A stretch of DNA of 64,000 nucleotides from Alphaproteobacteria bacterium (lineage in GTDB: Bacteria > Pseudomonadota > Alphaproteobacteria > M2410): positions 153,091-217,090 of the forward strand of contig OZ252216.1 in assembly GCA_965248915.1 (NCBI GenBank), read 5' to 3'. The translations under genes and the position numbers were made by a program. Below are positions 3,307 through 42,817 of this stretch, piece after piece; within the stretch, counting starts at the first letter, position 1; every line of letters begins with the position of its first letter. Below the pieces are notes generated by a model, which saw only the letters and a list, made by a program, of their open reading frames with translations, made no database searches and was not told the origin of the DNA.

Positions 3307-4983
3307 ATGAAAATCGCACTTTGTTATCCATCACTTTTGCCGGGTGAACGGCCGAGTTACGGTTTGCCGCCAATGGGTATTCTTTATATTGCGGCAGAGC
3401 TGCAATTGGCGGGGCACACAGTAACCGTTGTGGACTCTGATATCGAAGGATTGACTGCGCAAGAAACGGCGGAGTGCATTTTGGCCTCTGACCCGGATCT
3501 TATCGGGTTCAGCATTATGACGCCTCAGGTTCCCTGTTGTTTGCAAGCCTGTCATATTTTGAAGCGTGAACGCCCCGATATTCCCATCGTCATTGGCGGC
3601 GCCCATATCGCATCGACCCTGGATGACATCTTCACTCAAAGTGATGACTTCGATTTCGTGATCAATGGCGAGGGCGAGGTTACGATGCTCGAAGTTTGCG
3701 CCAAGATGCGTGAACAGAAAGTTCCAGAGTGTCTAGTGGGCGTCCCTGGCGTCATGTACCGCAAACCAGATGGTAAGGCCAAGATCAACCAACCACGACC
3801 CTTCTTTAAGGATCTCGATGAGTTGGCACCAATTGATTATTCATTGGTGGATGTTTTCAAATACAAAATCCCGACCCTACCTGGGCCGCCAGTTGTTGGC
3901 TTGATGATCACGCGCGGGTGTCCGTTCAAGTGTACATACTGTGATGCACCGACGACAACCGGTCGCAAAATCAGATATCATTCGCCGAAACGCGCGGTCG
4001 AAGACATTGTGCGGCTTAACAAACAATTCGGCGTGCGAGGATTTTCTTTCCGCGACAGTACCTTTACGGCGTCAAAGAAATGGACCAAGGAATTCTGCGA
4101 ACGTCTTATTGATAGCGGTGTCAAAATCGCTTGGCGTTGCAACACGCGCGTCGACTGTGTCACCGAAGAACTTCTGATGCTCATGAAGAAGTCAGGCTGT
4201 CACACCATCAATTTCGGTGTGGAATCCGGACACCCAGACATTCTGGCGCGCATCAAGAAAGAAGTGAAGATTGACCGGATTTACGACGCTCATAAATGGA
4301 CGCGAAAAGCCGGAATCAGAACTTACACGACATTTTTGGTCGGTTCACCCGGTGAGACCGATGAAACAATACGTGAGACAATAGAGGTAGCAAAGCGAGC
4401 CAGGCCGAGCATGGCCATGTTCTTTGTGACCATTGGATATCCAGGAACCGAAATGTACCGCGAAGCCGTTCAAGAGGGCCTCATCGAACAAGGATGGTGG
4501 AACAAGCAACGCTGGGACAAAGATGTGAACAGCGCATTCGAAAAACGGTGGGGCTGGTCGGCCGATGCAGGGTCGTTACATCTTGAAGGCTTCGATTCAC
4601 AAGGCTGGCAGCGTCGCGCCACACGCGAGTTTTACCTTCGTCCCAGATTTGTACTAGACACATTGATCTTCACTTTGAAGAACCCGTATTTCCTAAGGCA
4701 CGTTATTGTCCTATCGAAAGAAGTCCTGCCTCTGCACAAATTGCGTCTTCCTTGGAAGAAGTCCAAAATCAATGAAGATCATAAAGTCTATTCCCGTTGT
4801 CCGGAAGCTGCGACATGGGATTACAAAGAACGTGATGACCTCCCAGCTCTCACCATTACATCAAGTGGTGCTGTGAAGCGGACCGAAGAGGACATCAAAA
4901 TCCCGAAGGACATTCCTCCCGTCACCTTGGCCGACAGTGGTTTGGTGGAGCTGCGTGCAGGCAAGACGCAAGCAGCGGAATAG
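3307..4983 (+). CDS. B12-binding-domain radical SAM protein (paralog A)
   Basis: N-terminal cobalamin-binding Rossmann segment (KIALCYP…GILYIAAEL…VTVVD). Radical-SAM Cx3Cx2C (GCPFKCTYCDAP). About 120-aa C-terminal extension with WWNKQRWD…RWGW and RCPxxxxWDYKxRD motifs. Confidence 0.85.
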   Translation: MKIALCYPSLLPGERPSYGLPPMGILYIAAELQLAGHTVTVVDSDIEGLTAQETAECILASDPDLIGFSIMTPQVPCCLQACHILKRERPDIPIVIGGAHIASTLDDIFTQSDDFDFVINGEGEVTMLEVCAKMREQKVPECLVGVPGVMYRKPDGKAKINQPRPFFKDLDELAPIDYSLVDVFKYKIPTLPGPPVVGLMITRGCPFKCTYCDAPTTTGRKIRYHSPKRAVEDIVRLNKQFGVRGFSFRDSTFTASKKWTKEFCERLIDSGVKIAWRCNTRVDCVTEELLMLMKKSGCHTINFGVESGHPDILARIKKEVKIDRIYDAHKWTRKAGIRTYTTFLVGSPGETDETIRETIEVAKRARPSMAMFFVTIGYPGTEMYREAVQEGLIEQGWWNKQRWDKDVNSAFEKRWGWSADAGSLHLEGFDSQGWQRRATREFYLRPRFVLDTLIFTLKNPYFLRHVIVLSKEVLPLHKLRLPWKKSKINEDHKVYSRCPEAATWDYKERDDLPALTITSSGAVKRTEEDIKIPKDIPPVTLADSGLVELRAGKTQAAE

Positions 4984-5009
4984 GTTTGCAGAAATCCAAA
5001 TAGAAGAAA

Positions 5010-5040
5010 GGACCGGAGAAATCTTCGGCCCTTTTTGTTT
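5010..5040 (+). terminator. putative intrinsic terminator between the convergent radical-SAM genes
   Basis: GGACCGGA-GAAAUC-UUCGGCCC hairpin (8 bp, one mismatch, one G-U) followed by UUUUUGUUU. Sits 27 nt after the stop of paralog A, with paralog B converging from the other side. Confidence 0.35.
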
Positions 5041-5067
5041 ATTCTTCTTGTGTTACCGAAACCGTTC

Positions 5068-6669
5068 TTACTCGCTCACCGTCAGATGTGAATTCGCGTC
5101 ACTGCGCTTCTTATAATCCCAGTTGGGCTGCGACGGACAACGCTCAAGTATTTGCAGGCGTTCATCTTCCTTGATCTTCTTTTGCGGTAAGAGATTGCGC
5201 AATTTGTAGAAGGGAAGAACTTCAAATCCAAGATTCCACAAATGCCTCATGAAATAAGGGTTCTTCAACGTGAAAATTCCCGTGTCCCAAATAAAGCGTG
5301 GACGCATGTACCAGGCTCGGGTTGCCTTGCGTTGCCACAACTCCGCGTCAAATCCGTTCTTGAAGGTAAGGGCGCCTGCATCTGTCCAGCCCCAACGGAC
5401 TTGGAAGGCAGAGTTCTTTGAGGCGTCAAATTCTTGTTTGGCCCACCACCTGGGTTGAACCTCGCCGGCCACGAGTGCCTCATCATACATCGGCGTTCCC
5501 GGATAGGCCGTTGAAACGAAGAACATGCAGAGGCTTGGCCGAACGCGTTTGGAGAAATCGAGTGTATTTTGAGCGCTTTCTTCTGTTTCCCCAGGATTGC
5601 CAATAAGGAATGTCGCGTATGTCCGGATGCCCAATTTGCGGCAGCGCTCAAAGGCATCAACGACCTCTTCGAGATCAACTTCTTTCTTGATGCGCTTCAA
5701 GACTTCCTGGTCACCGGATTCAACGCCAAAGTTGATGACGTAGCAACCGGCCTCGGCCATGAGGTCAAGAAGACCAGGTGGGACGAGATTTGCACGGGTG
5801 TTGCAGCGCCATTTGATATTGAGATTTTCGTCGACCAACCGTTGGCAGAACTCCTGCGCCCACTTCTTCTTTGCGGTGAAAGTTGAGTCCTTAAACACGA
5901 AATTGGTGACACCGTACTTCTCTTTGTAGAACTTGATGTCTTCAATCACTCGGTCAATGGACCAAAATCTGAGCTTGGTTCCCATAGTGATCGGTGCGTC
6001 ACAGAATGTACATTTGAATGGACAACCGCGGGACAACATCATTGAAACCACATAACCACCCGCCATGGTCGGAATGCTGTACTTCTTAATATCGACCATG
6101 TCGTAGTCGACCGACGGAAACTCATCGAGATTGCGGGTAAACGGACGACCGAGGTTGACCTGGACTTTGCCAGTCTCTTTGTCGCGGTAAATTATGTTGG
6201 GCACATCTTCGATGCACTCTTGGAAATTGGTGTAGCCTTCTTCGGTCTTTACGCCCTTGTCGCGCAAGTTTTGGCAGGCCTCAAGCAGCGTGTACTCGCC
6301 TTCACCGTGAACGGCAAAATCGAAACAGTCAGCCATTTCGTATGTGTCACCCTTAGTGGAGTCGACATGAGCGCCTCCAAGTACGACGGGAAGGTCAGGA
6401 CGGGCTTCTTTAATCAGTGTCGAACATGCCAGCGCTGTAATCAGCTGCGGCGTCATCATGCTAAAGCCGATGAGGTCCGGTTCGCTTTCTAAGACGCGCA
6501 CGACCGTTTCTTCCACAGAAAGACCGTCGATGTCCGCGTCGATCACTTCGACGTCGAAACCATTCTCCTTCAACAAGGCCGCAATGTACAAGACGCCCAA
6601 GGGTTGCAGCCCGTACTTTGCTTTGTGTCCCGGTACCAATGCCGGATAACAGAGAGTGATCTTCTTCAT
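5068..6669 (-). CDS. B12-binding-domain radical SAM protein (paralog B)
   Basis: Same architecture as 3307..4983 (KITLCYPALVP…GVLYIAALL…VEVID; GCPFKCTFCDAP; C-terminal RWWAKQEF…RWGW and RCPSQPNWDYKKRSD). Clearly homologous but diverged, roughly 55-60% identity by eye. Confidence 0.85.
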   Translation of the reverse strand: MKKITLCYPALVPGHKAKYGLQPLGVLYIAALLKENGFDVEVIDADIDGLSVEETVVRVLESEPDLIGFSMMTPQLITALACSTLIKEARPDLPVVLGGAHVDSTKGDTYEMADCFDFAVHGEGEYTLLEACQNLRDKGVKTEEGYTNFQECIEDVPNIIYRDKETGKVQVNLGRPFTRNLDEFPSVDYDMVDIKKYSIPTMAGGYVVSMMLSRGCPFKCTFCDAPITMGTKLRFWSIDRVIEDIKFYKEKYGVTNFVFKDSTFTAKKKWAQEFCQRLVDENLNIKWRCNTRANLVPPGLLDLMAEAGCYVINFGVESGDQEVLKRIKKEVDLEEVVDAFERCRKLGIRTYATFLIGNPGETEESAQNTLDFSKRVRPSLCMFFVSTAYPGTPMYDEALVAGEVQPRWWAKQEFDASKNSAFQVRWGWTDAGALTFKNGFDAELWQRKATRAWYMRPRFIWDTGIFTLKNPYFMRHLWNLGFEVLPFYKLRNLLPQKKIKEDERLQILERCPSQPNWDYKKRSDANSHLTVSE

Positions 6670-12733: not shown

Positions 12734-12902
12734 GCTTGTGCTTTCTTGTTCTTCTTTGCTGGGAACTATAGGGGGGGCTTTGGACCGAGAATAGGGACTT
12801 TGTCACAAGCCGTCATTATCATTGGAAAGACGCGAAAGACGAGGTAAGAGGGGCGAGAAATTTCTGATCCTGCCGGCTGGCGAAAACAGAGGCGCGGCCA
12901 AT

Positions 12903-15098
12903 ATGAAAAATCGGGCGGACGTGGTTCATGAGAACTTCCTGAACCGTGTGAAATCTGAAGACTTTCCGAACCCCAGGTCATCCGTCAGCCTGGAAGACGC
13001 TGGGCTCAACACATCGCAATTGGTTGAGATGTTTGAAACCCAAGTCTTGAGTCGACACTTGGACCTACAATCGCGCAAACTCCAAGCACGCGGCGAGGGC
13101 TTTTACACAATCGGTAGTTCTGGGCACGAGGGCAATGCGGCCATTGCTGCTGCGTTTCGAATAGGCGATATGGCGTTCCTGCACTACCGTGATGCCGCCT
13201 TCCATATTCAGAGGTCAAAGAAGGTGCCGGGTCAAACTCCGATCTGGGACATGCTCTTGAGCTTTGTCGCCTCCAGTGACGATCCCATTTCCGGTGGGCG
13301 TCATAAAGTTCTGGGCAGTAAGGCGCTTTCGATCCCCCCTCAAACCAGCACCATTGCGTCCCACCTTCCAAAGGCGGTTGGGGCTGCCTACAGCATCGGC
13401 CTTTCACGCCTCATGAAACGAGAAGGGGATCTCGACCGCGACGCTGTCATCCTGTGTAGTTTTGGTGACGCGTCGGTCAATCATTCGACCGCTCAAGGCG
13501 CCATCAACACGGCCTGCTGGACATCCTTCCAAGGCGTACCGCTTCCCTTGGTTTTTGTGTGTGAAGACAATGGTATTGGCATTTCTACCAAAACCCCCTC
13601 CAACTGGGTCGAGCGAAGCTGCGGTCATAGACCGGGTCTTGCCTATTTCAAATGCGATGGCCTGAGTCTCCTCGACACCTACCGAGCCGGACAGGTCGTA
13701 GAGCAATACGTTCGCCGCCATCGTAAGCCTGTCTTTCTTCACATGGGCTGCGTGCGCCTCTTTGGACATGCCGGAGCGGACGTTCAAGAGAGTTACATGC
13801 CCAAGCAAGAGATCTTGGAAATGGAAGCAAACGATCCGCTTCTGCATTCAGCGCGCATCATCGTTGAAAACAATATCCTAACCTCTCAGGAAATTCTCGA
13901 CCTTTACAAGAGAACCGAGGACCGCGTAATCCGAACGGCGGAGGAGGTTATCAAACGTCCCAAATTGGCCACACGGGCCGACATTCGCGGCAGCTTAATC
14001 CCGCCAATGAAGGAGCCCGCCCAGGTCGCCGACAAGGTCGCATTGGCTGAGCGAGGACAGTCACCGCAGCATATGGCCCGCCTCATCAATTGGGCCCTCG
14101 CTGACATCATGGCAGAACGTCCCAATGTCGTTTTGGCCGGGGAGGATGTCGGCGCTAAGGGCGGCGTCTATGGCGTCACAGCCAAACTCTCTGAGACGTT
14201 CGGCAATCACCGTGTCATCAACACACTGCTTGACGAGCAAAGCATTCTGGGGCTCGCCATCGGTCTCGCCCACAATGGTTTTATCCCGATCCCGGAAATC
14301 CAATTCCTCGCCTATGTCCACAATGCAGAAGACCAAATCCGCGGTGAAGCATCGACCTTGAGTTTTTTCTCCAACGGTCAATACACCAACCCAATGGTTA
14401 TTCGCATTGCAGGACTTGGTTATCAAAAAGGGTTTGGCGGACACTTCCACAATGACAATTCCATCGCCGCTTTGCGTGACATTCCGGGCATTGTGATTGC
14501 CTGTCCGAGCAATGGCGCCGACGCGGTCGGCATGTTGCGTGAATGCGTGCGTCTCGCCGAAGAAGAACAACGCGTGGTGATTTTCTTGGAGCCAATTGCG
14601 CTCTACATGACGCGCGATTTGCATGAGCCTAAGGACGGTCTTTGGACATTTCCCTACAAAGCACCTTCCAAAATGGAAGGTGTAAAAGTAGGAGAGGTCA
14701 GCCTTCACGGATCAGGTGAAGACCTTTGCATCCTCACTTTCGGTAACGGTGTCTATCTCAGTCGCCAGGCTGAAAAAGTCTTGCAAGAGGATTACAAGGT
14801 CAACACGCGCATTGTCGATCTGCGCTGGCTTGCGCCTCTGAATCAAAAGTCGATCATGAAGGCGATTGGTCCTTGCAAGAAAGTTCTGATTGTTGATGAG
14901 TGTCGTGCCACCGGATCTCAAAGTGAGGCTCTGGTCACGTTGCTTCATGAGCATGGGGCAGGTGATCTTGCAATCGGCCGCATCACCGCAGACGATACGT
15001 TCATTCCGTTGGGCCGTGCTGCCACGGTGCCTCTCCCAAACAAAGAAGAGATCGTTGAAGCAGCGATGAACCTGGTAAACGGGGGAGAAGCGTCATGA
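12903..15098 (+). CDS. thiamine-diphosphate-dependent 2-oxoacid dehydrogenase E1 component, fused alpha/beta subunits
   Basis: N-half resembles E1-alpha (TPP-binding GDAS…NH region, GSSGHEGNAA). C-half resembles E1-beta / transketolase-like Pyr and C-terminal domains. 731 aa counted from the ATG at 12903; the track ORF starts upstream at 12822. Confidence 0.8.
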   Translation: MKNRADVVHENFLNRVKSEDFPNPRSSVSLEDAGLNTSQLVEMFETQVLSRHLDLQSRKLQARGEGFYTIGSSGHEGNAAIAAAFRIGDMAFLHYRDAAFHIQRSKKVPGQTPIWDMLLSFVASSDDPISGGRHKVLGSKALSIPPQTSTIASHLPKAVGAAYSIGLSRLMKREGDLDRDAVILCSFGDASVNHSTAQGAINTACWTSFQGVPLPLVFVCEDNGIGISTKTPSNWVERSCGHRPGLAYFKCDGLSLLDTYRAGQVVEQYVRRHRKPVFLHMGCVRLFGHAGADVQESYMPKQEILEMEANDPLLHSARIIVENNILTSQEILDLYKRTEDRVIRTAEEVIKRPKLATRADIRGSLIPPMKEPAQVADKVALAERGQSPQHMARLINWALADIMAERPNVVLAGEDVGAKGGVYGVTAKLSETFGNHRVINTLLDEQSILGLAIGLAHNGFIPIPEIQFLAYVHNAEDQIRGEASTLSFFSNGQYTNPMVIRIAGLGYQKGFGGHFHNDNSIAALRDIPGIVIACPSNGADAVGMLRECVRLAEEEQRVVIFLEPIALYMTRDLHEPKDGLWTFPYKAPSKMEGVKVGEVSLHGSGEDLCILTFGNGVYLSRQAEKVLQEDYKVNTRIVDLRWLAPLNQKSIMKAIGPCKKVLIVDECRATGSQSEALVTLLHEHGAGDLAIGRITADDTFIPLGRAATVPLPNKEEIVEAAMNLVNGGEAS

Positions 15099-16138
15099 CA
15101 GATAAGCAAACAGCACTCGTGGTCTGTCCCGGACGGGGTACCTACAACAAACCTGAACTGGGTTACTTCACCAGACATCACCCAGACAAGACGGATCTCC
15201 TCAAGAGATTTGATACCTTTCGCACTAGCAAAGGACAAGTTGAGATTAGTGAACTGGACCGCCGCGAACGGTTTTCCATGAAAGACTTCTCACGCGGCGA
15301 CAACGCATCCGCGTTGATTTACGCCTGTGCCTACGCCGACTTTCTCTCCATCGACCGCGAGAAATTCGATATCATCGCGGTGACCGGCAACTCCATGGGG
15401 TGGTACATCGCCACCGCTTGTGGCGGTGCGGTGAGCGAGGCCGGGGGTCTCGAGGTTATCAACACCATGGGCACATTGATGCATGACCATCTCGAAGGCG
15501 GACAAGCAATCTATCCGCTGATGGATGAAGAGTGGCATACAATTCCGGGGCGCCGTGAGGAGTTGTTGGGCCTCATCGACGACATTCATCACGAGCAGAA
15601 TAACAGGCTCTATGTTTCCATCGACCTTGGCGGCATGTTGGTCTTTGGCGGCGAAGACAAAGCGCTGGATCTATTGATGGAAAAACTGCCGGAAGAGCAG
15701 GGACGCTTTCCGCTTCGTTTGAACAATCACGCGGCGTTTCACACGCCTATTTTGCAAGACAATTCTGAGCGCGGCAAGGCACTGCTGTCGCAGGATCTGT
15801 TCCACCGCCCGTCCCTTCCCCTCATAGATGGACGCGGACACATATGGACCCCTTACTCTTCTGACCCAATTGAGATGTGGGACTACACACTCGGCGCTCA
15901 AATTGTCTCAACCTATGACTTCACGCGCGCCGTAGCGGTCGGCACGCAAGAGTTCTCGCCAGACTGCATTATCATCTTAGGTCCCGGCACCACACTGGGG
16001 GGCGCCGTGGCTCAATCCCTCATTTCGATTGATTGGCAGGGCCTGTCGTCAAAGGACGATTTTGTGAAAAGACAAAAATCAGACCCGATCATTTATTCCA
16101 TGGGAATGGACGATCAACGTGCAGAAGTTACAACATAG
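15095..16138 (+). CDS. acyltransferase-domain protein of the malonyl-CoA:ACP transacylase (FabD-like) superfamily
   Basis: GNSMG nucleophile elbow (GHSLG in FabD) and a downstream AAFHTP motif matching the FabD AFHS His. Its ATG overlaps the E1 stop (ATGA), indicating translational coupling. Confidence 0.55.
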   Translation: MTDKQTALVVCPGRGTYNKPELGYFTRHHPDKTDLLKRFDTFRTSKGQVEISELDRRERFSMKDFSRGDNASALIYACAYADFLSIDREKFDIIAVTGNSMGWYIATACGGAVSEAGGLEVINTMGTLMHDHLEGGQAIYPLMDEEWHTIPGRREELLGLIDDIHHEQNNRLYVSIDLGGMLVFGGEDKALDLLMEKLPEEQGRFPLRLNNHAAFHTPILQDNSERGKALLSQDLFHRPSLPLIDGRGHIWTPYSSDPIEMWDYTLGAQIVSTYDFTRAVAVGTQEFSPDCIIILGPGTTLGGAVAQSLISIDWQGLSSKDDFVKRQKSDPIIYSMGMDDQRAEVTT

Positions 16139-21576: not shown

Positions 21577-23199
21577 CTAAGCGGTTGGGTGTGACCCATT
21601 GGCGCGAGATGGTGCTTTGCGCGTGCTGCTTGTCTTGCGTTTCGTTTTAGCTTTCGCCTTCGTTTTTGCCTTAGCTTTAGCCTTCGATTTAGCTTTTGGC
21701 TTTGCTTTGGTTTTCGGTCTTGCAGATTTTTTGGCCACAGGTTTCTTCAGCGGTTTTTCCTCTTCGCCCTGGCCCAATCCATGAAGGAAGAGGGTTCTCA
21801 CATCCGCAATGTGTTTCTCGAGATTCTTCACATCCCAATCCTTAGTCGAAATGGGTGGTAGAACTTTGACTTCAATCGTTGTCGGTCGGGCGATGGCCGA
21901 TCCTTTGGGCATGGCATCCGTTGTATTCATCAAAAGGACCGGAACGATGGGCGCGTCTGCCTGCATCGACAAATGAAACCCGCCTTTCTTAAACGGTCCT
22001 AGCTTGTTGGTGACACTCCGGGTTCCTTCCGGCGCCATCATGACCGAAATGCCTGACTTCAACCCATCAATGGCTGGTTTGATAGCCTCGATGGCTTTTT
22101 CTGTATTGGAACGGTCAACAAAGAAAGTTCCAAGGGCGCGCGCCACCTGGCCGATTACAGGTTGTTTGCTGATCTCGATCTTTCCAATAGGGGCAAAGTC
22201 ACGCTTCAAGAGCTTGATCATGACAATCGCGTCAACAGCGCTTTGATGATTGAACATGAAGATTGCGGGTCGATGGGACCACAGGTGTTCTTCACCTTCC
22301 GTATTGATTCTAAGGCCTGTCGAGGCTGCCGACAATTCGCCCCAAACGGAATTGAAGATGTTACGTGCTTGCCAGGGGGAGCGGTTAAGCGCATAGGCCG
22401 ACAACGCTGCCGAGGCCGCAACCATGGAAGAACCATAAGCGAGCCCCGTACGCACGACATCCATTGTTGAAGGTGTGCCGCGGCTATCAAATCTGGTGAT
22501 GGGCCAGTCCCGTTCCTCTGCGATGCGCGTGAGCTTGCGTCCCGGATTAAGAGGGCGGGGATACTTCACCGCGTCTAGGAGTGGCAAATCCTCTGAACCG
22601 TCGGAATAGAAGTAGCTCTTAAGGAGGTCGGCGCCTTTTTCATCGCACAAAGCTTGAGCGGCCACGAGTTTTCCTTCGCCGTAACAGGCAGGTTCGATAA
22701 TGCGGCCAGTACAAACGCCGTTCTCAACTTCTAAATGATTGCAGAGAACGTTGTCGATGCCAAAGTCTTCGGCAACAGGGTCGACCTGATACGACGTCGC
22801 CGAAGAGACGATGGCAACAGTGTGCCCTTTGCGGAAGTGTGCCTCGATCAACCCGCGTGCTTCAGGATAAATCCGTGCGGCGACGCGTTCATCAAAGACT
22901 TTGCGTCCAAATTCGCAATTGGTTTCATCAAGCTGACCGCGCAAGGATGAGATCGTCGCGTTGACCCACTCGGTGAAGTCAATTTTGCCGCGCGCGAACT
23001 CCGTTGAAACGGCGACCCCGTCAATCAGCTCCGGGATCGACATATCACCTTCTTTGAGGCGCTCAACGAACAAGTCTTGAGCTGAAAACCCTGCCAGGAC
23101 GGTCTTGTCCATGTCGAAAAAGGCACCGACGGTCGAGCCTGAGGGGCCATCTTCGATGTCCCGCAACAATGTTTGATAGGTCGCCATAATTCTTCCCAA
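21577..23199 (-). CDS. bifunctional HAD-IB family phosphatase / 1-acyl-sn-glycerol-3-phosphate acyltransferase (PlsC-like) with Lys/Ala-rich basic C-terminal tail
   Basis: N-half has HAD motif I FFDMDKTV and motif IV …YSDGSEDLPLL. C-half has the LPLAT H(x4)D motif (NHQSAVD) and EGTRS motif. The last about 50 aa are KAKxK repeats. The start lies 4 nt after the plsB stop. Confidence 0.75.
   Translation of the reverse strand: MGRIMATYQTLLRDIEDGPSGSTVGAFFDMDKTVLAGFSAQDLFVERLKEGDMSIPELIDGVAVSTEFARGKIDFTEWVNATISSLRGQLDETNCEFGRKVFDERVAARIYPEARGLIEAHFRKGHTVAIVSSATSYQVDPVAEDFGIDNVLCNHLEVENGVCTGRIIEPACYGEGKLVAAQALCDEKGADLLKSYFYSDGSEDLPLLDAVKYPRPLNPGRKLTRIAEERDWPITRFDSRGTPSTMDVVRTGLAYGSSMVAASAALSAYALNRSPWQARNIFNSVWGELSAASTGLRINTEGEEHLWSHRPAIFMFNHQSAVDAIVMIKLLKRDFAPIGKIEISKQPVIGQVARALGTFFVDRSNTEKAIEAIKPAIDGLKSGISVMMAPEGTRSVTNKLGPFKKGGFHLSMQADAPIVPVLLMNTTDAMPKGSAIARPTTIEVKVLPPISTKDWDVKNLEKHIADVRTLFLHGLGQGEEEKPLKKPVAKKSARPKTKAKPKAKSKAKAKAKTKAKAKTKRKTSSTRKAPSRANGSHPTA
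21600..21745 (-). repeat. imperfect short tandem repeats (gcyttrgcyttcg-like) encoding the Lys/Ala/Pro-rich tail
   Basis: Visible on the + strand as repeated gctttagccttcg / gcttttggctttg units. Translation on the minus strand gives KPKAKSKAKAKAKTKAKAKTKRK. Confidence 0.6.
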
Positions 23200-23202
23200 A
23201 CC

Positions 23203-25569
23203 TCAGTCTTCTTGGCGGCTTAGCACCATTGTGACGATAATGTCGAGTCGGCGGGAGATATCTCGCATATCCTGCGCCCATTGAACCCGCCGTTCGGCCA
23301 CTTCCGCGCCGCCCTCGTCAAGCCCGCGATTGGTGGCGAGTTTTAAGCCCGTTTCATAAAGGCTTTTGGAAACTGATTCTTCCGAGAAAATCCGACTTTG
23401 CAAATACATCTGCTTTCCAAGTTTGATGCAGTCAGCCAAAAAGGACTTGGCGTCTTCAACCGGCTCAGATCCGAGGCGACAAAGAGCTTGAGCCACAACC
23501 GAATAGGCATCCGTGAAAGAACGAAGAACTCCCTGGGCCACAAGGGGTCTTGTTTCATCAAGCGCATCGCGCGCTGCATGACCGCCCTCTCTGAGAGCCG
23601 CTTCCCAACTCTTCGTGCGCGCTTTGAGTTCAGAATCAACTTCCGCCCGAAACTCGTCTTTTGGCGGGAAGTAAAACTCAAACTTCAACAAATCTCTCAA
23701 CGCTTCCACTTCACGCCAGAACACCAGCGCGCCGTCTTCACTAGGACGATCCGAGACCTTCATGAGCGCCAGCTCAACAATGGCATCGACAACAAAGAAG
23801 TGAATGATGGTATTTCGGTAATACGCCGCTTTGAGATACTCACCGCGACATATTGCGTAGACCTTCTCAAGTCCCTCTTCGTAACAGGTTACCACCCCAT
23901 TGCGGGTCAACTGTTCAAGCGTTAGCTCAATGGCTTCGAGGGTGTCGAGCTCTAGAGGTCCGGCTGTCGGAAACTGCCGACGATTGACGACTTCCATCCA
24001 GGATTGAATGGTCCGCTGAATACCTTTGAGGGTGCGCGCTCGTGTGCTATTGGCGAGGAGGGACAGTGTTACCAATGAAGTGGCCGTTATGGGAGTGACC
24101 TCATTGATACGAACGGCGACTTGGAAAGCGAGCTTTTGTACGGCTTCGGTTTTTTGGTCTGCATTGAGGCCGTCATTGAGGCGCTCTGGGGGAACAATGT
24201 CAGGAAGACGAAGCGGTTCGCCAAAGCGCAAGAAGATGCGGCCGAGCTTTTGCTTGGAGCGGAGGAACTTTGCGATCCAAGCCATGCCCTCTGGCTTCTT
24301 GTCGAGCCCTCGCTGTTCGCGAATATAGTCATCGACTTCATTGATCTGATCATAGGCAATTGTGACCGGAACAAATGTGACGTCATAGCTCTTGTTTCTC
24401 AGGATCGATTCAACGAAGTAATTGAACATGCCATACCGTGGCGGCAGCAGTTTTCCGGTTCGAGACCGTGTTCCTTCAAATGCCCAAACAAACGAAAAGC
24501 GCTTGTCGACCATATAGTCAATGTAACGCCGGAATGTTGCCTTGTAGGTTTCATTGTCTTGGAAACTGCGCCGAATAAAGATGACACCAGCGTTCTTGCC
24601 AAGGGCGCCAAGGCCAAAGGTATTGAGATTGATGCCGCCGAAAGCCATGGGCGGCGGCAGATTGTTGTCAAACAAAGTGACCGACAAAGCGACCGTATCG
24701 AGCATTGACTTGTGAGTGACCAAAAAGACCACAGGCCTTGAGGTGAGCAAGTCGCGAACTTCTTCCAACTGCCCTTTGTCATAGTCAATTTCAGGATCGT
24801 ACGTACTCACATACATGGCGCGTTGCAGCGCAATGAAGCAATCGAGTGTGAACGGGTTTTGAGCTGCCGCCATTTCTTTGAGATACGCTTCGGCTTTCTC
24901 GCGGACCTGCGGTAAGTCAGCATCGCCCGACTGGGAAATATCAACCAGCTTCTTTTGATAGGTTTGGTCCGAGAAGACGTCACTAGTGAGAAGTTTCGGC
25001 ACCTTGTATCTCGCGCCGCGCAAGACACGTTCGGCTCGTTCCAAGACGACGGCGGCCTGACGCAAGACAAAATCGCTCAGAGTGCTGTCATCAAATTCCG
25101 CTGAACCCCAATCGTCTTCAAATTGGCGTCGCACATCGCTCAAATGGGCGCCGAGACCTGCAGCACATTTTACCCGGTCAGGATGTCTCTTGAGCAGCCA
25201 GCGCCCTCTAAATCTTCCAGGGTGTTGAACGATCCCGGCAAAGAGGTCTTGAACGAGGGGAAATCTTTTCTCCGCGCTGCTTTGCCCAAGCCACACCACG
25301 CGCACCGGTTGGAGCCAGGGGTCATGGCCATATTGCGTGGTACTTTCAATAACCGATGATAGGTCGCTTTGGGCATCCCCACCAATATTGCAAAATGAGT
25401 GATCGACATTTTCGCCGTCGGAATGGTCCGCGATCCATTTCTTGAGGATCTCGTCTTCCAGATCATTCGCCGCATCCAACAGAAAAATAACCTGAGCTTT
25501 GCCTGCCCAAGGGCCAGTGGAAGTTTCTTGATCAACGGCGGTTTCGTGCAAGATGGTCGTTTGACTCAT
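23203..25569 (-). CDS. plsB: glycerol-3-phosphate 1-O-acyltransferase
   Basis: 788 aa, the same size as E. coli PlsB (807 aa). Contains VTHKSMLDTVAL (H(x4)D) and FEGTRSRTGKLL motifs. Confidence 0.85.
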   Translation of the reverse strand: MSQTTILHETAVDQETSTGPWAGKAQVIFLLDAANDLEDEILKKWIADHSDGENVDHSFCNIGGDAQSDLSSVIESTTQYGHDPWLQPVRVVWLGQSSAEKRFPLVQDLFAGIVQHPGRFRGRWLLKRHPDRVKCAAGLGAHLSDVRRQFEDDWGSAEFDDSTLSDFVLRQAAVVLERAERVLRGARYKVPKLLTSDVFSDQTYQKKLVDISQSGDADLPQVREKAEAYLKEMAAAQNPFTLDCFIALQRAMYVSTYDPEIDYDKGQLEEVRDLLTSRPVVFLVTHKSMLDTVALSVTLFDNNLPPPMAFGGINLNTFGLGALGKNAGVIFIRRSFQDNETYKATFRRYIDYMVDKRFSFVWAFEGTRSRTGKLLPPRYGMFNYFVESILRNKSYDVTFVPVTIAYDQINEVDDYIREQRGLDKKPEGMAWIAKFLRSKQKLGRIFLRFGEPLRLPDIVPPERLNDGLNADQKTEAVQKLAFQVAVRINEVTPITATSLVTLSLLANSTRARTLKGIQRTIQSWMEVVNRRQFPTAGPLELDTLEAIELTLEQLTRNGVVTCYEEGLEKVYAICRGEYLKAAYYRNTIIHFFVVDAIVELALMKVSDRPSEDGALVFWREVEALRDLLKFEFYFPPKDEFRAEVDSELKARTKSWEAALREGGHAARDALDETRPLVAQGVLRSFTDAYSVVAQALCRLGSEPVEDAKSFLADCIKLGKQMYLQSRIFSEESVSKSLYETGLKLATNRGLDEGGAEVAERRVQWAQDMRDISRRLDIIVTMVLSRQED

Positions 25570-25626
25570 TGGCTGTTCGTTTCCTCACCGACTTCTCAAA
25601 TATGAAGTGGGATCAATACAGTTGAA

Positions 25627-27063
25627 CTACTTGGCGGTCTTCAATTTTGCGAAAGCCGCTTTTCTCAATTCGTTGTAAGATTGGTCAATGCACTCAGCGT
25701 AAAAATCAGGGTCAGGAAGATGTTCCCGACAAGCTGTTATAGAAATCGTTAGCGTGTTCTTGTGGCTGGTCACCGCGTGGAAAATGCCCATGCCGTCTCC
25801 AAGCGGCGCCATGCCGTACCCGGCGACGAGCTTTGCGCCAGCAAAGAAGATATCCATGGGAAGTCCGGGGACATTCGACACGAATGTATTGCAGATAGGC
25901 CGCATTTTGGAGATCCATTTCATACCTTCAGCACGGCGAAAAGTTGCCGACGCGAGGGCAGGGCTCAAAATGCCGGATATATGGGAGAGAAGATCGGGGC
26001 CGCGAACCGCAGCCATTCGCTTTGCGTCCTGAGTTCGGATGCGAATGGCTTGAAGTCGCGCGATGGGATCTTCTATATCCGTGCCCATGGCAACAGCCAT
26101 ATCTGAAATCTGGTTTCCTCCATCCCCTTCAGCCCCTTCGGTTCTGACCGAGATCGGGCACATCGCCACCAGCGATGTTTTCGGAAGTTCTTCTTTTGCC
26201 AATAGGTAGCGTCGCATCGCGCCGGCGCAAATGGCAATGGCGGCATCATTGATGGTCGCACCATTGATCGCTTTTCTGAATTTTCGAATGTCTTCGAGCA
26301 CATACTCGCGCCCCTCAAAGACGCGGTGCACCGATACCGGTTCGTTAAAGCGCGTGCGTGGGACGGAGGGACTCTTTAGCAGACGTTCCTGCCGTCGCGA
26401 CCGACCGGCTTTGAGTTCTCCGCGAATGAGCGCGGATGTGTGTCCGATCGACGTGAGCGGTTGCTGAACGAGATTTGGCAGAGCGCGCGTAAGCAGAGCG
26501 GCATCCGTGGGCAGGCTTTCATCTGTCCCATCAAATGAATCGGTTCCTTTGTCACGCGAGGCCTCTGGATCAAGTTCGTGTATGGCCTCCATAAGTGCGA
26601 TCGCCGAGACTCCATCTGTGAGGATGTGATGGATCTTGATGAGGACTGCAAAACTACCTTTCGGGATGTTGTCAATATTGTCTAAGCCGCCAATGACATA
26701 CATCTCCCACATCGGACGATTCATATCGAGAGGTCGGGAATAGATGCGGGCCAAGAGAATGCACAGCTGTTTCCAATCGCCTGGCTTTGGCAAGGCGATG
26801 TGGCGAACATGAAATTCAAGGTCAAAATCAGGATCATTGGCGAGATACGGCAGATCCAAGTCCATGGGTACGCGGACCAGTTTCTGCCGAAACGGCTCCC
26901 AGAGGTGCAGGCGCTCCCGCATATACTGCAGGATCTCCATGAACCTTACTTTGCCGCCTGGCGCCGAAGAGGGATCATAGATAGAAACACCACCGACGAC
27001 GCTCGGCGTATGCGGTGTATCCGCATAGAAGAAGACGGCATCTGTGTTGGAGATTTGCTTCAT
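25627..27063 (-). CDS. wax ester synthase / acyl-CoA:diacylglycerol acyltransferase (WS/DGAT) family
   Basis: HHILTDGVS active-site motif (HHxxxDG). 478 aa with a typical WS/DGAT N-terminus MKQISNTDAVFFYADTPHTP. Confidence 0.85.
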   Translation of the reverse strand: MKQISNTDAVFFYADTPHTPSVVGGVSIYDPSSAPGGKVRFMEILQYMRERLHLWEPFRQKLVRVPMDLDLPYLANDPDFDLEFHVRHIALPKPGDWKQLCILLARIYSRPLDMNRPMWEMYVIGGLDNIDNIPKGSFAVLIKIHHILTDGVSAIALMEAIHELDPEASRDKGTDSFDGTDESLPTDAALLTRALPNLVQQPLTSIGHTSALIRGELKAGRSRRQERLLKSPSVPRTRFNEPVSVHRVFEGREYVLEDIRKFRKAINGATINDAAIAICAGAMRRYLLAKEELPKTSLVAMCPISVRTEGAEGDGGNQISDMAVAMGTDIEDPIARLQAIRIRTQDAKRMAAVRGPDLLSHISGILSPALASATFRRAEGMKWISKMRPICNTFVSNVPGLPMDIFFAGAKLVAGYGMAPLGDGMGIFHAVTSHKNTLTISITACREHLPDPDFYAECIDQSYNELRKAAFAKLKTAK

Positions 27064-40159: not shown

Positions 40160-42817
40160 ATGATACGCCCTTTAAAATCGATTATTCTGACAATCTGCAT
40201 CTCTTTCATTGGTGTGGTGGTGTTTAGCCCGTCCATGTCTGTTGCCCAAGAAGCCGCGGCTGAGGAAACGGAGACCGAAAAGCCCAAGGAAGAAGAGAAG
40301 GCTTCAAAGTCAAAAAAGAAAAAGAAGAAAGACGATGACGAAGAAGATAAAGAAACCTTAGAGGAAGTAACGAAAGACTTTGAAAAGCTAGAAGGTCTTT
40401 TCACCCTCTACCGCGATCCGGAAAATGGCGCGCTCCACATGGAGATCGCATCAGACCAGATAGATAAGGAATTCATTTATCACGCGTTGACAGTCGATGG
40501 ACCTGCCGACCTAGGGTTCAACTATACCCGAGGCTCATATCTGGCCAATGATGTCATTTCAATTCGCAAGCACTACGAGACCATCGAGATCTACAAGGAA
40601 GTCACGTCCTTTTACTATGACCCAGAAAGTCCGATGTCTCGGGCGGCCAGAGTCAATCAAATCCCATCACTCATCGCCACAGCGACCATTACGGCAAAGA
40701 GCGAAGACGAGACACGTTATTTGATTGAGGCCGATCCACTGTTTGTCTCTGAAGCTCTAACACAGATTAGCCCTTCCCCAAGTGCCGAGCCACCCAAGAA
40801 TGTTCCCTTCTCAATCGGCGGCTTCAATCCTGAAAAAAGCAAGACACTTGATGTTCGCAGCTATCCGAAGAATGCGAACGTCACCGTCGCATTAACCTAT
40901 GACAGCAGCACGCCAATGAATTATGGCAGCGATGAAATTGTCGACGCACGCTCTGTCACCATCAATGTTCAGCACAGTTTTATCGCGATGCCGGACGATG
41001 GATTTAGACCTCGGTTTGATGATCAACGGGTGGGGTATTTTTATCAGCGTGTCACAGATCTCACCTCCGCTGACTTTACACCGTACAGAGATCTGATCGA
41101 TCGTTGGCGATTGGTGAAAAAGGATCCGGAGGCGGAGATTTCCGAACCGGTCACCCCAATCACCTATTGGATTGAAAATACAACGCCGCTTGAATACAGA
41201 GAAGCTATTAAGAAAGGCACCCTGGCTTGGAACGCGGCGTTTGAAAAAGTCGGGTTCAAAAACGCCATTGTGGTGAACATTCAACCCGATGACGCCGAGT
41301 GGGATGCCGGCGATATTGAATATAACGTCATCCGTTGGGTCTCCTCGCCGCAACCAATGTACTCGGGTATGGGCCCGAGCATAACCAATCCGCGAACCGG
41401 TGAAATCATTGGTACGGATATTATGCTTGAATACATTTCCGTGTCTTTCATTCTGCAACTGGAAAACTCATTTGACATCGCCGCCATGCCCGCATTGGCG
41501 CCGCCGGAGGGTCAAGAAAGCGAGTTGAACTATTGCAGCGCTGGCCTGGCGATGCAGTCGAATGTGATGTTTGGCCGCGCAGTATTACAAAGTCAGAATG
41601 CAAGTGAGGCGGAAGTCGGAGAGTTTCTTGAGCAGAGCTTGATCAGTCTTGCCGCTCATGAGGTTGGCCACACGCTGGGCTTGATGCACAATTTCCGAGC
41701 CAGCTATTATCAACCGATAGACAGAGTCTTCATTTCAGATGTCACGAAGGCAGATACGCTAAGCGCGTCCGTGATGGACTATGAGACAGCCAATTTGTCG
41801 AAAGACCGGAGTGTTGACGGACACTACTTCACAATGCAAATCGGGCCTTATGATCATTGGGCGATTGAGTATGGCTACTCCCAATCGGAAGAAGATGAGG
41901 AATTGGAGCAGACGCGCCTCGCAGAGATCTTGGCGAGGTCAACAGAGCCGGGACACGCTTTCGCAAATGACGCCGATGATATGCGCTACCCCGGAAAAGG
42001 CATTGATCCTCGCGCAATGATTTTTGACATGTCCGCCGACCCAATCTCTTACGCCATTGATCGCGCCAGCTTGGTCAAAGATCTTTTGTCGACCATGGCA
42101 CAAGAGTACGATGAAGAAGGTGCAACTTGGCACGGGCTTCGAACATCGTATCTCTATGTTTCCAGCCATACAGGATTGGCCTCGATGGTCTTGTCCAGAT
42201 ACATCGGTGGTGTCTATGTCGAACGACAAACCATTGGCCAACCTGGGCAAAAGCAACCATTCACTGCGGTTGCCTATGCCGACCAGAAGAGGGCCATGCT
42301 AGGTCTCCGTGACCACATTTTCGCGCCCGATGCGTTTGACATGCCTGTCGAACTCATCGCGCGTCTCCAGATGCAACGTCGCGGTCAGCAATTTTGGCCA
42401 ATCACTGAGGATCCGAAAATCCACGATCGGGCTCTCGGCATTCAAAACCGAGCCCTCGCCCATGTCATGCATCCGGTGGTCATGAAGCGTCTCACAGATT
42501 CACGTCTCTATGGAAACGAGTATTCTGTCGCAGAAATGTTGGGAGATTTGACGGACGCAATCTTCGAAGAGGATCTCAAAGGACCGGTCAACACCTATCG
42601 CCAAAACCTGCAGATGCAGTATGTCCAGCGTCTCACTGGAATCTTGTTTGGCGCGCAGGGGTATGACCAGATTTCTCAATCCGCGGCGCATTACAATCTT
42701 CGCCGCATTGAACGCATGATGCGGCAAGGTGCGCGTGGGAACTTGGAAACTCAAGCCCATCGCAGACATGTCCGCGCTTTGGTCGAGAACGTTCTCTATG
42801 GTGAACCCTCAAGATGA
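40160..42817 (+). CDS. secreted zinc-dependent metalloprotease (met-zincin, DUF4953-type)
   Basis: Signal peptide MIRPLKSIILTICISFIGVVVFSPSMSVAQ. Acidic/basic linker …EEKASKSKKKKKKDDDEEDKE…. HEVGHTLGLMHNF zinc site. 885 aa. Confidence 0.75.
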   Translation: MIRPLKSIILTICISFIGVVVFSPSMSVAQEAAAEETETEKPKEEEKASKSKKKKKKDDDEEDKETLEEVTKDFEKLEGLFTLYRDPENGALHMEIASDQIDKEFIYHALTVDGPADLGFNYTRGSYLANDVISIRKHYETIEIYKEVTSFYYDPESPMSRAARVNQIPSLIATATITAKSEDETRYLIEADPLFVSEALTQISPSPSAEPPKNVPFSIGGFNPEKSKTLDVRSYPKNANVTVALTYDSSTPMNYGSDEIVDARSVTINVQHSFIAMPDDGFRPRFDDQRVGYFYQRVTDLTSADFTPYRDLIDRWRLVKKDPEAEISEPVTPITYWIENTTPLEYREAIKKGTLAWNAAFEKVGFKNAIVVNIQPDDAEWDAGDIEYNVIRWVSSPQPMYSGMGPSITNPRTGEIIGTDIMLEYISVSFILQLENSFDIAAMPALAPPEGQESELNYCSAGLAMQSNVMFGRAVLQSQNASEAEVGEFLEQSLISLAAHEVGHTLGLMHNFRASYYQPIDRVFISDVTKADTLSASVMDYETANLSKDRSVDGHYFTMQIGPYDHWAIEYGYSQSEEDEELEQTRLAEILARSTEPGHAFANDADDMRYPGKGIDPRAMIFDMSADPISYAIDRASLVKDLLSTMAQEYDEEGATWHGLRTSYLYVSSHTGLASMVLSRYIGGVYVERQTIGQPGQKQPFTAVAYADQKRAMLGLRDHIFAPDAFDMPVELIARLQMQRRGQQFWPITEDPKIHDRALGIQNRALAHVMHPVVMKRLTDSRLYGNEYSVAEMLGDLTDAIFEEDLKGPVNTYRQNLQMQYVQRLTGILFGAQGYDQISQSAAHYNLRRIERMMRQGARGNLETQAHRRHVRALVENVLYGEPSR

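Follow-up and report, generated by a model that had tools for sequence, protein, structure and literature searches.

Two convergent genes in the 64 kb window (the whole stretch of DNA that was analysed) encode intact radical SAM enzymes with a B12-binding-type N-domain. These proteins, denoted A and B, are not a local duplication: within one unnamed family, each belongs to a deep subfamily of its own. The relationship between the subfamilies is asymmetric and is best read as that of a core subfamily, B, and an accessory subfamily, A, that is found only where B is present. Elsewhere, this family lies in operons for the attachment of sugars in the cell envelope, and hence the pair probably makes two radical modifications of a lipid-linked sugar. 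The specific proposal that A and B modify a lipid-linked envelope sugar, with B responsible for the primary modification and A for a second, regiochemically different one, is in our assessment evenly balanced.

More than 220,000 B12-type radical SAM enzymes have been recorded (PMC12931638). Few of them have assigned functions, and the family described here, which has no curated model, is frequently mislabelled as BchE. At present, its delineation is an annotation-level advance that holds no surprise, concerning a variant, as yet uncharacterised, of a familiar class of enzymes. The linkage to a module of glycosyltransferases and a flippase-like protein nevertheless yields a testable hypothesis, namely, that a lipid-linked sugar of the envelope is the target of radical chemistry, and the combination of a core B and an accessory A is a natural pair for dissecting regiospecificity. 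Should the enzymes yield a distinctive lipid or glycan of the envelope, that product could also be of interest as a biomarker or as a determinant at the cell surface.

Two intact enzymes from two deep subfamilies

Copy A (558 aa) is encoded at positions 3307-4983 of the + strand and copy B (533 aa), which is identical to a public protein (P0104), at positions 5068-6669 of the - strand. The original prediction of two paralogs, about half identical, that share a B12-binding domain, an intact CX3CX2C motif and a Trp-rich C-terminal module holds in full, down to the exact coordinates and strands of both open reading frames: in a pairwise BLASTP comparison, A and B are 52% identical, with 71% positives, across 523 aa (E = 0). 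In Pfam searches, the B12-binding domain (PF02310; 80.7 bits for A and 85.7 for B, cutoff 32.1) spans aa 20-130 of A (nt 3364-3696, + strand) and aa 15-130 of B (nt 6280-6627, - strand), and the Radical SAM core (PF04055; 99.8 and 97.3 bits, cutoff 29.5) spans aa 201-360 of A (nt 3907-4386) and aa 212-372 of B (nt 5554-6036). The CX3CX2C motif of the [4Fe-4S] cluster consists of C205, C209 and C212 in A (nt 3919-3942, + strand) and of C216, C220 and C223 in B (nt 6001-6024, - strand); in our alignment, none of the 123 family members deviates from it, and neither does the outgroup. By this motif and the PF02310 domain, both copies belong to the B12-binding-domain class (class B), and binding of cobalamin is predicted from the Pfam domain only.

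The AF2 model of copy A (pLDDT 88.5, pTM 0.89) includes a confident alpha/beta N-domain, and its fold matches those of TsrM, TokK, CysS, OxsB and MgmA in a Foldseek search. No transmembrane helix was found in A or in B. Apart from the cluster motif, both copies retain every family-invariant residue, and both evolve under purifying selection (pN 0.08-0.23 against a saturated pS of about 0.8; these values are given in place of dN/dS because synonymous sites are saturated), with A diverging at about 1.8 times the rate of B between the same pair of genomes. As had been anticipated, neither copy is degenerate. An auxiliary cluster formed by four additional conserved cysteines (C264, C278, C298 and C498) is disfavoured, given that three of these are also present in the outgroup, which lacks C498.

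The suggestion that the split is old is borne out by phylogenetic analysis. The tree contains three subfamilies with bootstrap support of 98-100%, the A and B clades are each supported at 100%, and orthologues of both A and B are present in other lineages. The family has hundreds of members, in Alpha-, Gamma- and Deltaproteobacteria, an anammox planctomycete and many metagenomes. A scan of a genome collection with a single-protein query yielded only 3 loci, and a metagenome scan yielded 26, mostly short or distant. The claim that the duplicates are maintained side by side has to be revised, because linkage is conserved and layout is not: A and B remain linked across five layouts, namely convergent, divergent, tandem in either order, and 6-9 kb apart. 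The expected co-conservation of the two copies is one-sided. All A-type copies with adequate flanks have B nearby, and the A-type loci without B all have a flank shorter than 350 bp on one side or both. The statement that A occurs only with B is based on about 13 loci, many of them on short contigs. B, for its part, often occurs alone, and is found without A despite 10 kb flanks in L007, L009, L043 and L044.

This distribution bears on the possibility that A and B form a heteromer, obligate or facultative, that catalyses one joint reaction instead of two steps. A complex would account for A never being found without B and for the arrangement in L041, where 8 bp separate the two genes within a single operon, but B, being commonly alone, must function by itself, both copies have the complete cluster motif and all family-invariant residues, and transcription in the window is convergent. 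We consider a heteromer improbable. The notion of two activities on one substrate is plausible, and we cite in its support the 29 positions at which A and B have different fixed residues; of these, 21 map to the catalytic core (aa 191-300).

An interval of 84 bp lies between the convergent genes and includes a hairpin with U-rich tracts on both strands (positions 4998-5046), resembling a bidirectional intrinsic terminator. The original prediction of a hairpin shared by the two genes is upheld: as the + strand, the 49-nt core has a folding energy of -17.6 kcal/mol (z -4.1), compared with -13.9 kcal/mol (z -3.0) as the - strand, none of the 200 shuffles folded equally well on either strand, and on each strand the stem is followed by a U-rich tract. 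The hairpin is absent from the closest relative (L001), and both it and the convergent layout are confined to the source lineage. A search against Rfam around the pair detected no riboswitch or other RNA element, only a sub-threshold match to MicC over the hairpin (27 bits vs 90), and the non-coding DNA between the upstream flippase-like gene and A shows no conservation with L001.

A Trp-rich C-terminal module outside the named families

Both proteins share a C-terminal module of about 125 aa (aa 388-512 of A, nt 4468-4842, + strand; aa 399-525 of B, nt 5095-5475, - strand) that consists of 6-7% Trp and 17% Lys/Arg; in A, Trp accounts for 6.4% of the module vs 0.8% of the remaining protein. 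The module includes a WW...RWGW segment (W397-W398 and R414-W417 of A, nt 4495-4557) and, further on, an RCPxxxxWDYKxRD motif at residues 497-511 of A, within the tail RCPEAATWDYKERDD (nt 4795-4839, + strand), and at residues 510-524 of B, within the tail RCPSQPNWDYKKRSD (nt 5098-5142, - strand). Conservation among the 123 family members reaches 95% or more for WW, RWGW, WQ, ATR, NPYF and the Cys-Pro within the RCP motif, and is only partial for the WDYK portion. In the AF2 model of copy A, the module folds with a pLDDT of 77-93 to about aa 480, and the tail at 496-506 falls below 50.

The module had been flagged as unusual, and it is indeed not the canonical DUF4070 (PF13282), which, like the module, lies C-terminal to the radical SAM core and from which the module differs in showing no sequence-profile match. 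Isolated modules had no Pfam match of any kind at E <= 10 and the full proteins had no match to DUF4070 at E <= 0.1; PF13282 was likewise absent from all 120 listed homologues with precomputed Pfam assignments and from 19 more distant relatives. No NCBIfam match to the module was obtained, its profile retrieved only noise from PDB sequences (E >= 0.5), and among 1.84 billion cluster representatives only 42 matched it. Nor does the module on its own match HpnJ. Within a narrow group of proteins that share its first approximately 90 residues, HpnJ is the best or second-best match.

The full-length proteins fall well short of the curated cutoffs of every named family examined: HpnJ (TIGR03471; 205.8 bits for A and 207.7 for B, equivalog cutoff 577.6), which is the top or second NCBIfam match for both copies; BchE (TIGR02026; 210.6 and 181.6 bits, cutoff 481.35), the top match for A; the ladderane-type lipid B12-radical SAM family (TIGR04072; 157.6 and 129.8 bits, cutoff 360); and the AprD4 family of diol-dehydratases (NF033070; 136.5 and 130.7 bits, cutoff 500). 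Other NCBIfam matches include PhpK-type, RiPP and KedN5-type methylases.

The top-ranking match of A, together with the label carried by several homologues in the JGI annotation, could suggest that A and B are BchE, the anaerobic Mg-protoporphyrin monomethyl ester cyclase, or else redundant isozymes of one housekeeping reaction. However, the alignment to BchE stops at about aa 391-405, leaving out the C-terminal module, and no bch genes were found in any neighbourhood inspected; with scores under the curated cutoff and this gene context, BchE membership is effectively refuted. Simple redundancy is disfavoured by the fixed differences between A and B and by their conserved co-occurrence, and we regard this explanation, in either form, as extremely improbable.

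Gene neighbourhoods and the proposed reaction

The one neighbour conserved with the pair is a flippase-like membrane protein of 344 aa, encoded upstream of A (positions 1926-2960, + strand), that contains LPG_synthase_TM only (PF03706, 117.7 bits, cutoff 33.4), without a synthase domain, and has 77 KD windows above 1.6. Its orthologue in L001 is 58% identical and occupies the same position, and homologues at 35-37% are encoded in the radical SAM operons of L005, L009 and L011. Elsewhere, the usual partners of B are a polyprenyl-phosphate-type GT2, with best matches to ArnC, PpgS, AglJ and dolichyl-P hexose transferase; PMT_2 (GT-C); LPG_synthase_TM, with a weak likeness to HpnL; and an amine-oxidase-like flavoprotein (AO). 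The family matches of these partner genes are all under curated cutoffs. L041 is a five-gene operon, A-B-PMT_2-GT2-LPG_TM; in L011, with the operon GT2-AO-B-PMT_2-LPG_TM, B is 83% identical to copy B of the window; and L005 carries GT2, deacetylase and radical SAM genes in series. A tblastn search of the 64 kb window detected no homologues of GT2, PMT_2, AO, the deacetylase or a 202-aa ORF, so that in the source genome the link to glycosylation consists only of the LPG_TM neighbour and the orthology of B. GMC oxidoreductase and MFS genes occur both upstream of B in the window and near homologues, but the two sets do not match, and those of the window are thus taken to be unrelated neighbours. 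The original prediction was silent on the upstream flippase-like gene and on the GT2 and GT-C partners elsewhere, and a literature search for an association of radical SAM enzymes with GT-C or flippase genes returned nothing relevant.

In the mechanism that we propose, each enzyme would cleave SAM reductively to produce a 5'-deoxyadenosyl radical, which would remove a hydrogen from a lipid-linked sugar anchored in the membrane, on the cytoplasmic face, with the Trp-rich module docking the enzyme on the membrane or the lipid. After the primary modification by B and the second, regiochemically different one by A, the product may be moved outward by the flippase-like protein and, in genomes that have a GT-C enzyme, transferred or decorated by it. 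The reaction could be a C-methylation, as is classical for B12-radical SAM enzymes, or a non-methylating rearrangement or dehydration of the kind represented by HpnJ and AprD4. The gene-neighbourhood association does not distinguish modification of the sugar from modification of the lipid or acceptor.

One specific form of this proposal is a classical class-B methylase pair, that is, methylcobalamin-dependent C-methyltransferases that would add two methyls to one substrate, successively or at two positions; as a special case of the lipid-linked-sugar explanation, it does not contradict the latter. BchQ/BchR, HpnP/HpnR and CysS are the named parallels for such an arrangement. Most characterised B12-radical SAM enzymes are methylases (PMC12931638), and the Foldseek matches that follow AprD4 (MgmA, TsrM, CysS and TokK) as well as several of the NCBIfam matches listed above are methylases, but the top-scoring named families, BchE, HpnJ and AprD4, are not, and we consider a methylase pair possible, if on the unlikely side. 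Sequence is insufficient for assigning the chemistry, methylase or otherwise.

A second form is carbocycle formation similar to that by HpnJ or Cds, whereby a lipid-linked (amino)hexose would undergo ring contraction or rearrangement to the cyclitol-type head group of a non-hopanoid lipid. The rank of HpnJ among the matches of both copies and of the group with the partial module, the gene order in L005, which resembles HpnI-HpnK-HpnJ, and the HpnL likeness of the LPG_TM partner are consistent with this reading, as is the fact that lipid-linked sugars are the substrates of HpnJ and Cds (PMC13459092). Against it stand the HpnJ scores, far under the cutoff, and the failure of the isolated module to match HpnJ; furthermore, the co-encoded GT-C could no longer use a ring-contracted sugar as its glycosyl donor. 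No SQHop_cyclase (squalene-hopene cyclase) or HpnH-type family was detected among the called genes of homologue loci, and the ten large ORFs of the window that were checked are not SHC. Carbocycle formation is, in our view, doubtful.

Returning to the modification of a lipid-linked sugar by B and A, its most far-reaching extension is a widespread, unrecognised bacterial pathway whose product would be an envelope glycolipid or glycan of a new class. At the inner membrane, a sugar linked to polyprenyl phosphate or to another lipid would be remodelled by B12-type radical SAM enzymes that do not methylate, yielding, for instance, a head group that is carbocyclic or deoxy/branched. The Trp-rich module, which would be particular to this chemistry, would serve in docking to the membrane and its Cys-Pro tail in catalysis or metal binding; LPG_synthase_TM would flip the product and GT-C would install it. 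We offer this extension as speculation, more likely wrong than right by a considerable distance.

Relation to known systems

HpnJ resembles A and B in the order of the B12-binding domain, the radical SAM core and a helical C-terminal region, and its gene cluster resembles the partners described here in encoding a GT2 (HpnI), a deacetylase (HpnK) and an LPG_synthase_TM protein (HpnL) (PMC13459092; bioRxiv 10.1101/2025.07.29.667474); the GT2-deacetylase-radical SAM series of L005 parallels the HpnI-HpnK-HpnJ logic (PMC13459092). Unlike HpnJ, however, the A/B family has an extra tail of about 45 aa with the conserved Cys-Pro and is accompanied by GT-C/PMT_2 and a polyprenyl-P-type GT2, with no hopanoid genes detected nearby; the scores of A and B are about 36% of the curated HpnJ cutoff.

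The archaeal GDGT ring synthases GrsA/GrsB and, similarly, BchQ/BchR and HpnP/HpnR are paralogous pairs of B12-domain radical SAM enzymes that perform the same chemistry successively, at different positions of one lipid substrate (PMC13459092). They are a precedent for A and B by analogy only; these pairs act on isoprenoid chains or tetrapyrroles and have no glycosyltransferase or flippase partners.

The closest solved structure by sequence is AprD4 (PDB 6fd2; E 3.5e-34, about 21% identity), which is also the closest solved fold in the Foldseek search (E 5.9e-25, TM 0.76 normalised to the target). AprD4 is a radical SAM 1,2-diol dehydratase that acts on the glucosamine ring of paromamine. It has a related N-domain, yet binds no cobalamin (PMC12931638). 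AprD4 belongs to an aminoglycoside antibiotic pathway and, by sequence, is devoid of the Trp-rich module. Its substrate is an aminosugar, which we count in favour of a sugar substrate for A and B.

A paralogous pair and its deep split

The paired B12-type radical SAM (rSAM) enzymes of the window, A (3307-4983, + strand, 558 aa) and B (5068-6669, - strand, 533 aa), both match the Pfam B12-binding and Radical_SAM domains far over threshold. The N-termini of both fit the family consensus MK(V/I)TLCYP, which indicates that the two ORFs are full length, and no transmembrane segment was detected in either. The proteins align end to end with 52% identity and 71% positives over 523 residues, and each retains an intact CX3CX2C motif, in agreement with the original prediction of paralogs about half identical with an intact cluster motif. 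Both also contain the WW...RWGW segment, and RCPxxxxWDYKxRD is located at residues 497-511 in A and 510-524 in B.

Past the conserved tail motif, A continues for about 45 residues (513-558; window 4843-4980), with a terminal helix predicted at 541-557. Such an extension is limited to the closest A-type relatives (544-578 aa), most A-type proteins stopping at about 513-522 aa.

A search of 5.8 billion proteins recovered 645 relatives at E <= 1e-10; among the 120 listed, 76 are closer to B and 44 to A by score. One of the database proteins (P0104) is identical to B, and another (P0122, 558 aa), from the same public contig of 3.54 Mb, is apparently A. In a neighbor-joining tree rooted with an outgroup of eight HpnJ-like proteins, the A/B family is monophyletic (bootstrap 100) and comprises three groups, namely, a B clade (100), an A lineage (100), and an intermediate group (98), with a bootstrap of 92 for the non-B grouping. 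Three well-supported groups in a rooted tree imply that A and B are deep-rooted subfamilies and did not arise by recent duplication in place. The paralogy and the old split that had been proposed both hold.

A locus from a Deltaproteobacteria MAG (L011) encodes one copy 67% identical to A and another 83% identical to B; between the window and this locus, the divergence of A is about 1.8 times that of B. Both genes are subject to purifying selection (pN 0.08-0.23, with pS saturated at about 0.8). Fixed differences between A and B occupy 29 positions, 21 of which lie in the region of the cluster loop and core strands (aa 191-300). Neither protein has lost any family-invariant residue; C264, C278, and C298 are common to the family and the outgroup, and Cys498 in the tail is family-specific.

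The C-terminal module

Both proteins carry, after the radical SAM core, a Trp-rich C-terminal module of about 125 aa. Beyond the two core domains, Pfam yielded no match for full-length A and B (E <= 0.1) or for the isolated modules (E <= 10), and all 120 listed homologues of the 645 carry only PF04055 and PF02310. DUF4070, raised as a possible identity of the module, is accordingly rejected. The isolated modules matched no NCBIfam model, and a profile built from 33 diverse modules found nothing among PDB sequences and just 42 proteins at E <= 1e-3 among 1.84 billion cluster representatives. Family members or fragments account for the strong matches; the weaker ones of full length are 12 proteins of 462-526 aa that cover only profile positions 1 to ~92. 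Ten of these 12 were scanned: the best NCBIfam match was HpnJ or BchE, always under cutoff, and DUF4070 was found in none.

Within the family, conservation of at least 95% extends to WW, F, RWGW, G, WQ, ATR, Y, P, and F, and further to DT, F, NPYF, L, E, P, and the tail Cys-Pro; WDYK is only partially conserved. Trp makes up 6.4-7.1% of the module versus 0.8% of the remaining protein, and Lys/Arg about 17% of the module. In an AlphaFold2 model built from a 96-sequence alignment (pLDDT 88.5, pTM 0.89), the module consists of short helices and three longer ones at 431-473, with the RCP tail (496-506) under pLDDT 50.

The RWGW part of the profile (positions 30-71) is also matched four times (E 5e-7) in P0149, a database protein of 2692 aa, at residues ~1167-1208 and three other stretches. 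Possible explanations are a repeat protein carrying a comparable Trp motif and a compositional coincidence.

Arrangement and neighborhood

In the window, A and B converge on an 84 bp spacer holding a hairpin. For its 49-nt core (4998-5046), the folding energy is -17.6 kcal/mol (z -4.1) for the + strand and -13.9 kcal/mol (z -3.0) for the - strand. No shuffle among 200 equalled either strand in stability, and on both the stem is followed by U-rich tracts, so the predicted hairpin between convergent genes is real; as a lasting feature of the pair, the shared terminator is local only, without conservation. The side-by-side convergent layout is likewise local. It recurs in an Alphaproteobacteria MAG (L001; A 88%, B about 83%), but elsewhere the genes are in tandem (A then B with an 8 bp gap in L041, B then A in L015), divergent (L016, L042), or 6-9 kb apart (L004, L011/L012, L040).

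That linkage persists while the layout varies indicates functional coupling. B-type genes stand alone, with no A, in L007, L009, L043, and L044 despite complete 10 kb flanks, and in L045 with flanks of 4.7 and 8.9 kb; of the A-type loci, four show no B (L002, L013, L014, L039), and each of these has less than 350 bp of flanking sequence on one side or both. This asymmetric occurrence points to B as the core enzyme and A as an accessory. That the two linked products form an A-B heteromer appears improbable to us.

Locus L018 (465-6452) harbors two B-type copies, not an A+B pair, flanking an amine-oxidase-like gene and an LPG_synthase_TM gene; thus, duplication inside the B subfamily happens too. 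In L004 (a 5.8 Mb genome), a DDE transposase (14021-15388) separates the A-type gene from the operon with B, consistent with a rearrangement having split the pair.

The sole neighbor common to the window and L001 is the upstream gene for an LPG_synthase_TM flippase-like membrane protein (1926-2960 in the window); the SDR, enoyl-CoA hydratase, GMC oxidoreductase, and MFS genes show no such conservation. Elsewhere, B adjoins genes for PMT_2 (a GT-C glycosyltransferase), a GT2 enzyme of ~290-310 aa, LPG_synthase_TM, and a PRK07208-type amine-oxidase-like flavoprotein. The order in the L041 operon is A-B-PMT_2-GT2-LPG_synthase_TM, and that in L005 is GT2-deacetylase-rSAM-PMT_2-GT2-LPG_synthase_TM. 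The best matches of the GT2 partner, all sub-threshold, are polyprenyl-phosphate glycosyltransferases (dolichyl-P hexose transferase, ArnC, PpgS, and AglJ). Wider loci add envelope-polysaccharide genes, namely, GT4, Wzx-type flippase, epimerase, sulfotransferase, and phosphodiesterase/sulfatase. The 64 kb window contains no GT2, PMT_2, or amine-oxidase-like homologues. Relatives with ~25-34% identity likewise occur in arrays by GT2 genes, two or three paralogues at a time, without the C-terminal module (L020, L024, L026-L028), so paralogue arrays beside GT2 genes are normal for the wider clade.

These arrays span 7086-11269 in L020, 5991-13704 in L026/L027, and 4346-7412 in L028; in L020 and L026/L027, GT2 genes are interleaved, with amine-oxidase-like and deacetylase genes near. 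The rSAM operons of L011 (17135-17743, -) and L041 (1-609, +) each include a 202-aa ORF without a Pfam or NCBIfam match; with both as queries, tblastn (E <= 1e-8) gave self-hits only, with no mutual homology detected, and the window contains no homologue of either.

Among other genes of the window, 21577-27063 (-) holds three consecutive lipid-assembly genes, encoding a HAD-phosphatase/1-acylglycerol-3-phosphate acyltransferase fusion (539 aa), a mycobacterial-type glycerol-3-phosphate acyltransferase (PRK03355, 745 bits, over cutoff), and a WS/DGAT wax-ester/triacylglycerol synthase, which suggests neutral-lipid storage capacity. Two large ORFs, 40160-42817 (+, 885 aa) and 42809-45532 (-, 907 aa), overlap by 9 bp at their 3' ends and have no NCBIfam match at E <= 1e-20. 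A 758-aa protein (12822-15098, +) fuses E1-alpha-like and E1-beta-like halves of 2-oxoacid dehydrogenase in a single chain, every match being under the curated cutoff; in L001, a 795-aa transketolase/E1-like ORF lies directly upstream of the LPG_synthase_TM gene.

Proposed function and known systems

In the most likely reading, to which we give an even chance, A and B carry out two different radical reactions that modify a lipid-linked envelope sugar, or possibly its lipid, and the product is exported; the "two activities on one substrate" originally suggested are likewise something we infer. Both enzymes would be cytoplasmic and dock at the membrane via the Trp/Arg-rich module, B and A would each make a distinct modification, the flippase-like protein would export the modified product, and the GT-C enzyme, where encoded, would use or decorate it.

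All the best curated-family matches are far under the cutoffs: BchE (210.6 bits for A and 181.6 for B; cutoff 481.35), HpnJ (205.8 and 207.7; 577.6), ApyD (198.4 and 200.8; 750), ladderane rSAM (157.6 and 129.8; 360), and AprD4 (136.5 and 130.7; 500). Identity with BchE, or simple redundancy of A and B, is effectively excluded. The solved structure nearest in both sequence and fold is that of AprD4, a diol dehydratase whose target is a glucosamine ring, followed by the cobalamin methylases MgmA, TsrM, CysS, and TokK, and then OxsB. Methylation is a possible chemistry, albeit a doubtful one; an HpnJ- or AprD4-type rearrangement or dehydration seems to us unlikely. For HpnJ and Cds, contraction of lipid-linked hexoses has been proposed (PMC13459092). 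AprD4 has a related N-domain, yet binds no cobalamin (PMC12931638), so that cobalamin use by A and B is something we infer.

A literature search found no account of the A/B family, nor of its linkage to GT-C and flippase-like genes. GrsA and GrsB are paired B12-type rSAM paralogues that modify a single lipid one after the other (PMC13459092). HpnL, the LPG_synthase_TM protein of the hopanoid cluster, is itself uncharacterised (bioRxiv 10.1101/2025.07.29.667474). A and B are a real, well-conserved, uncharacterised subfamily pair inside a very well-known enzyme class, and stand out by their distinctive C-terminal module and informative set of partners.
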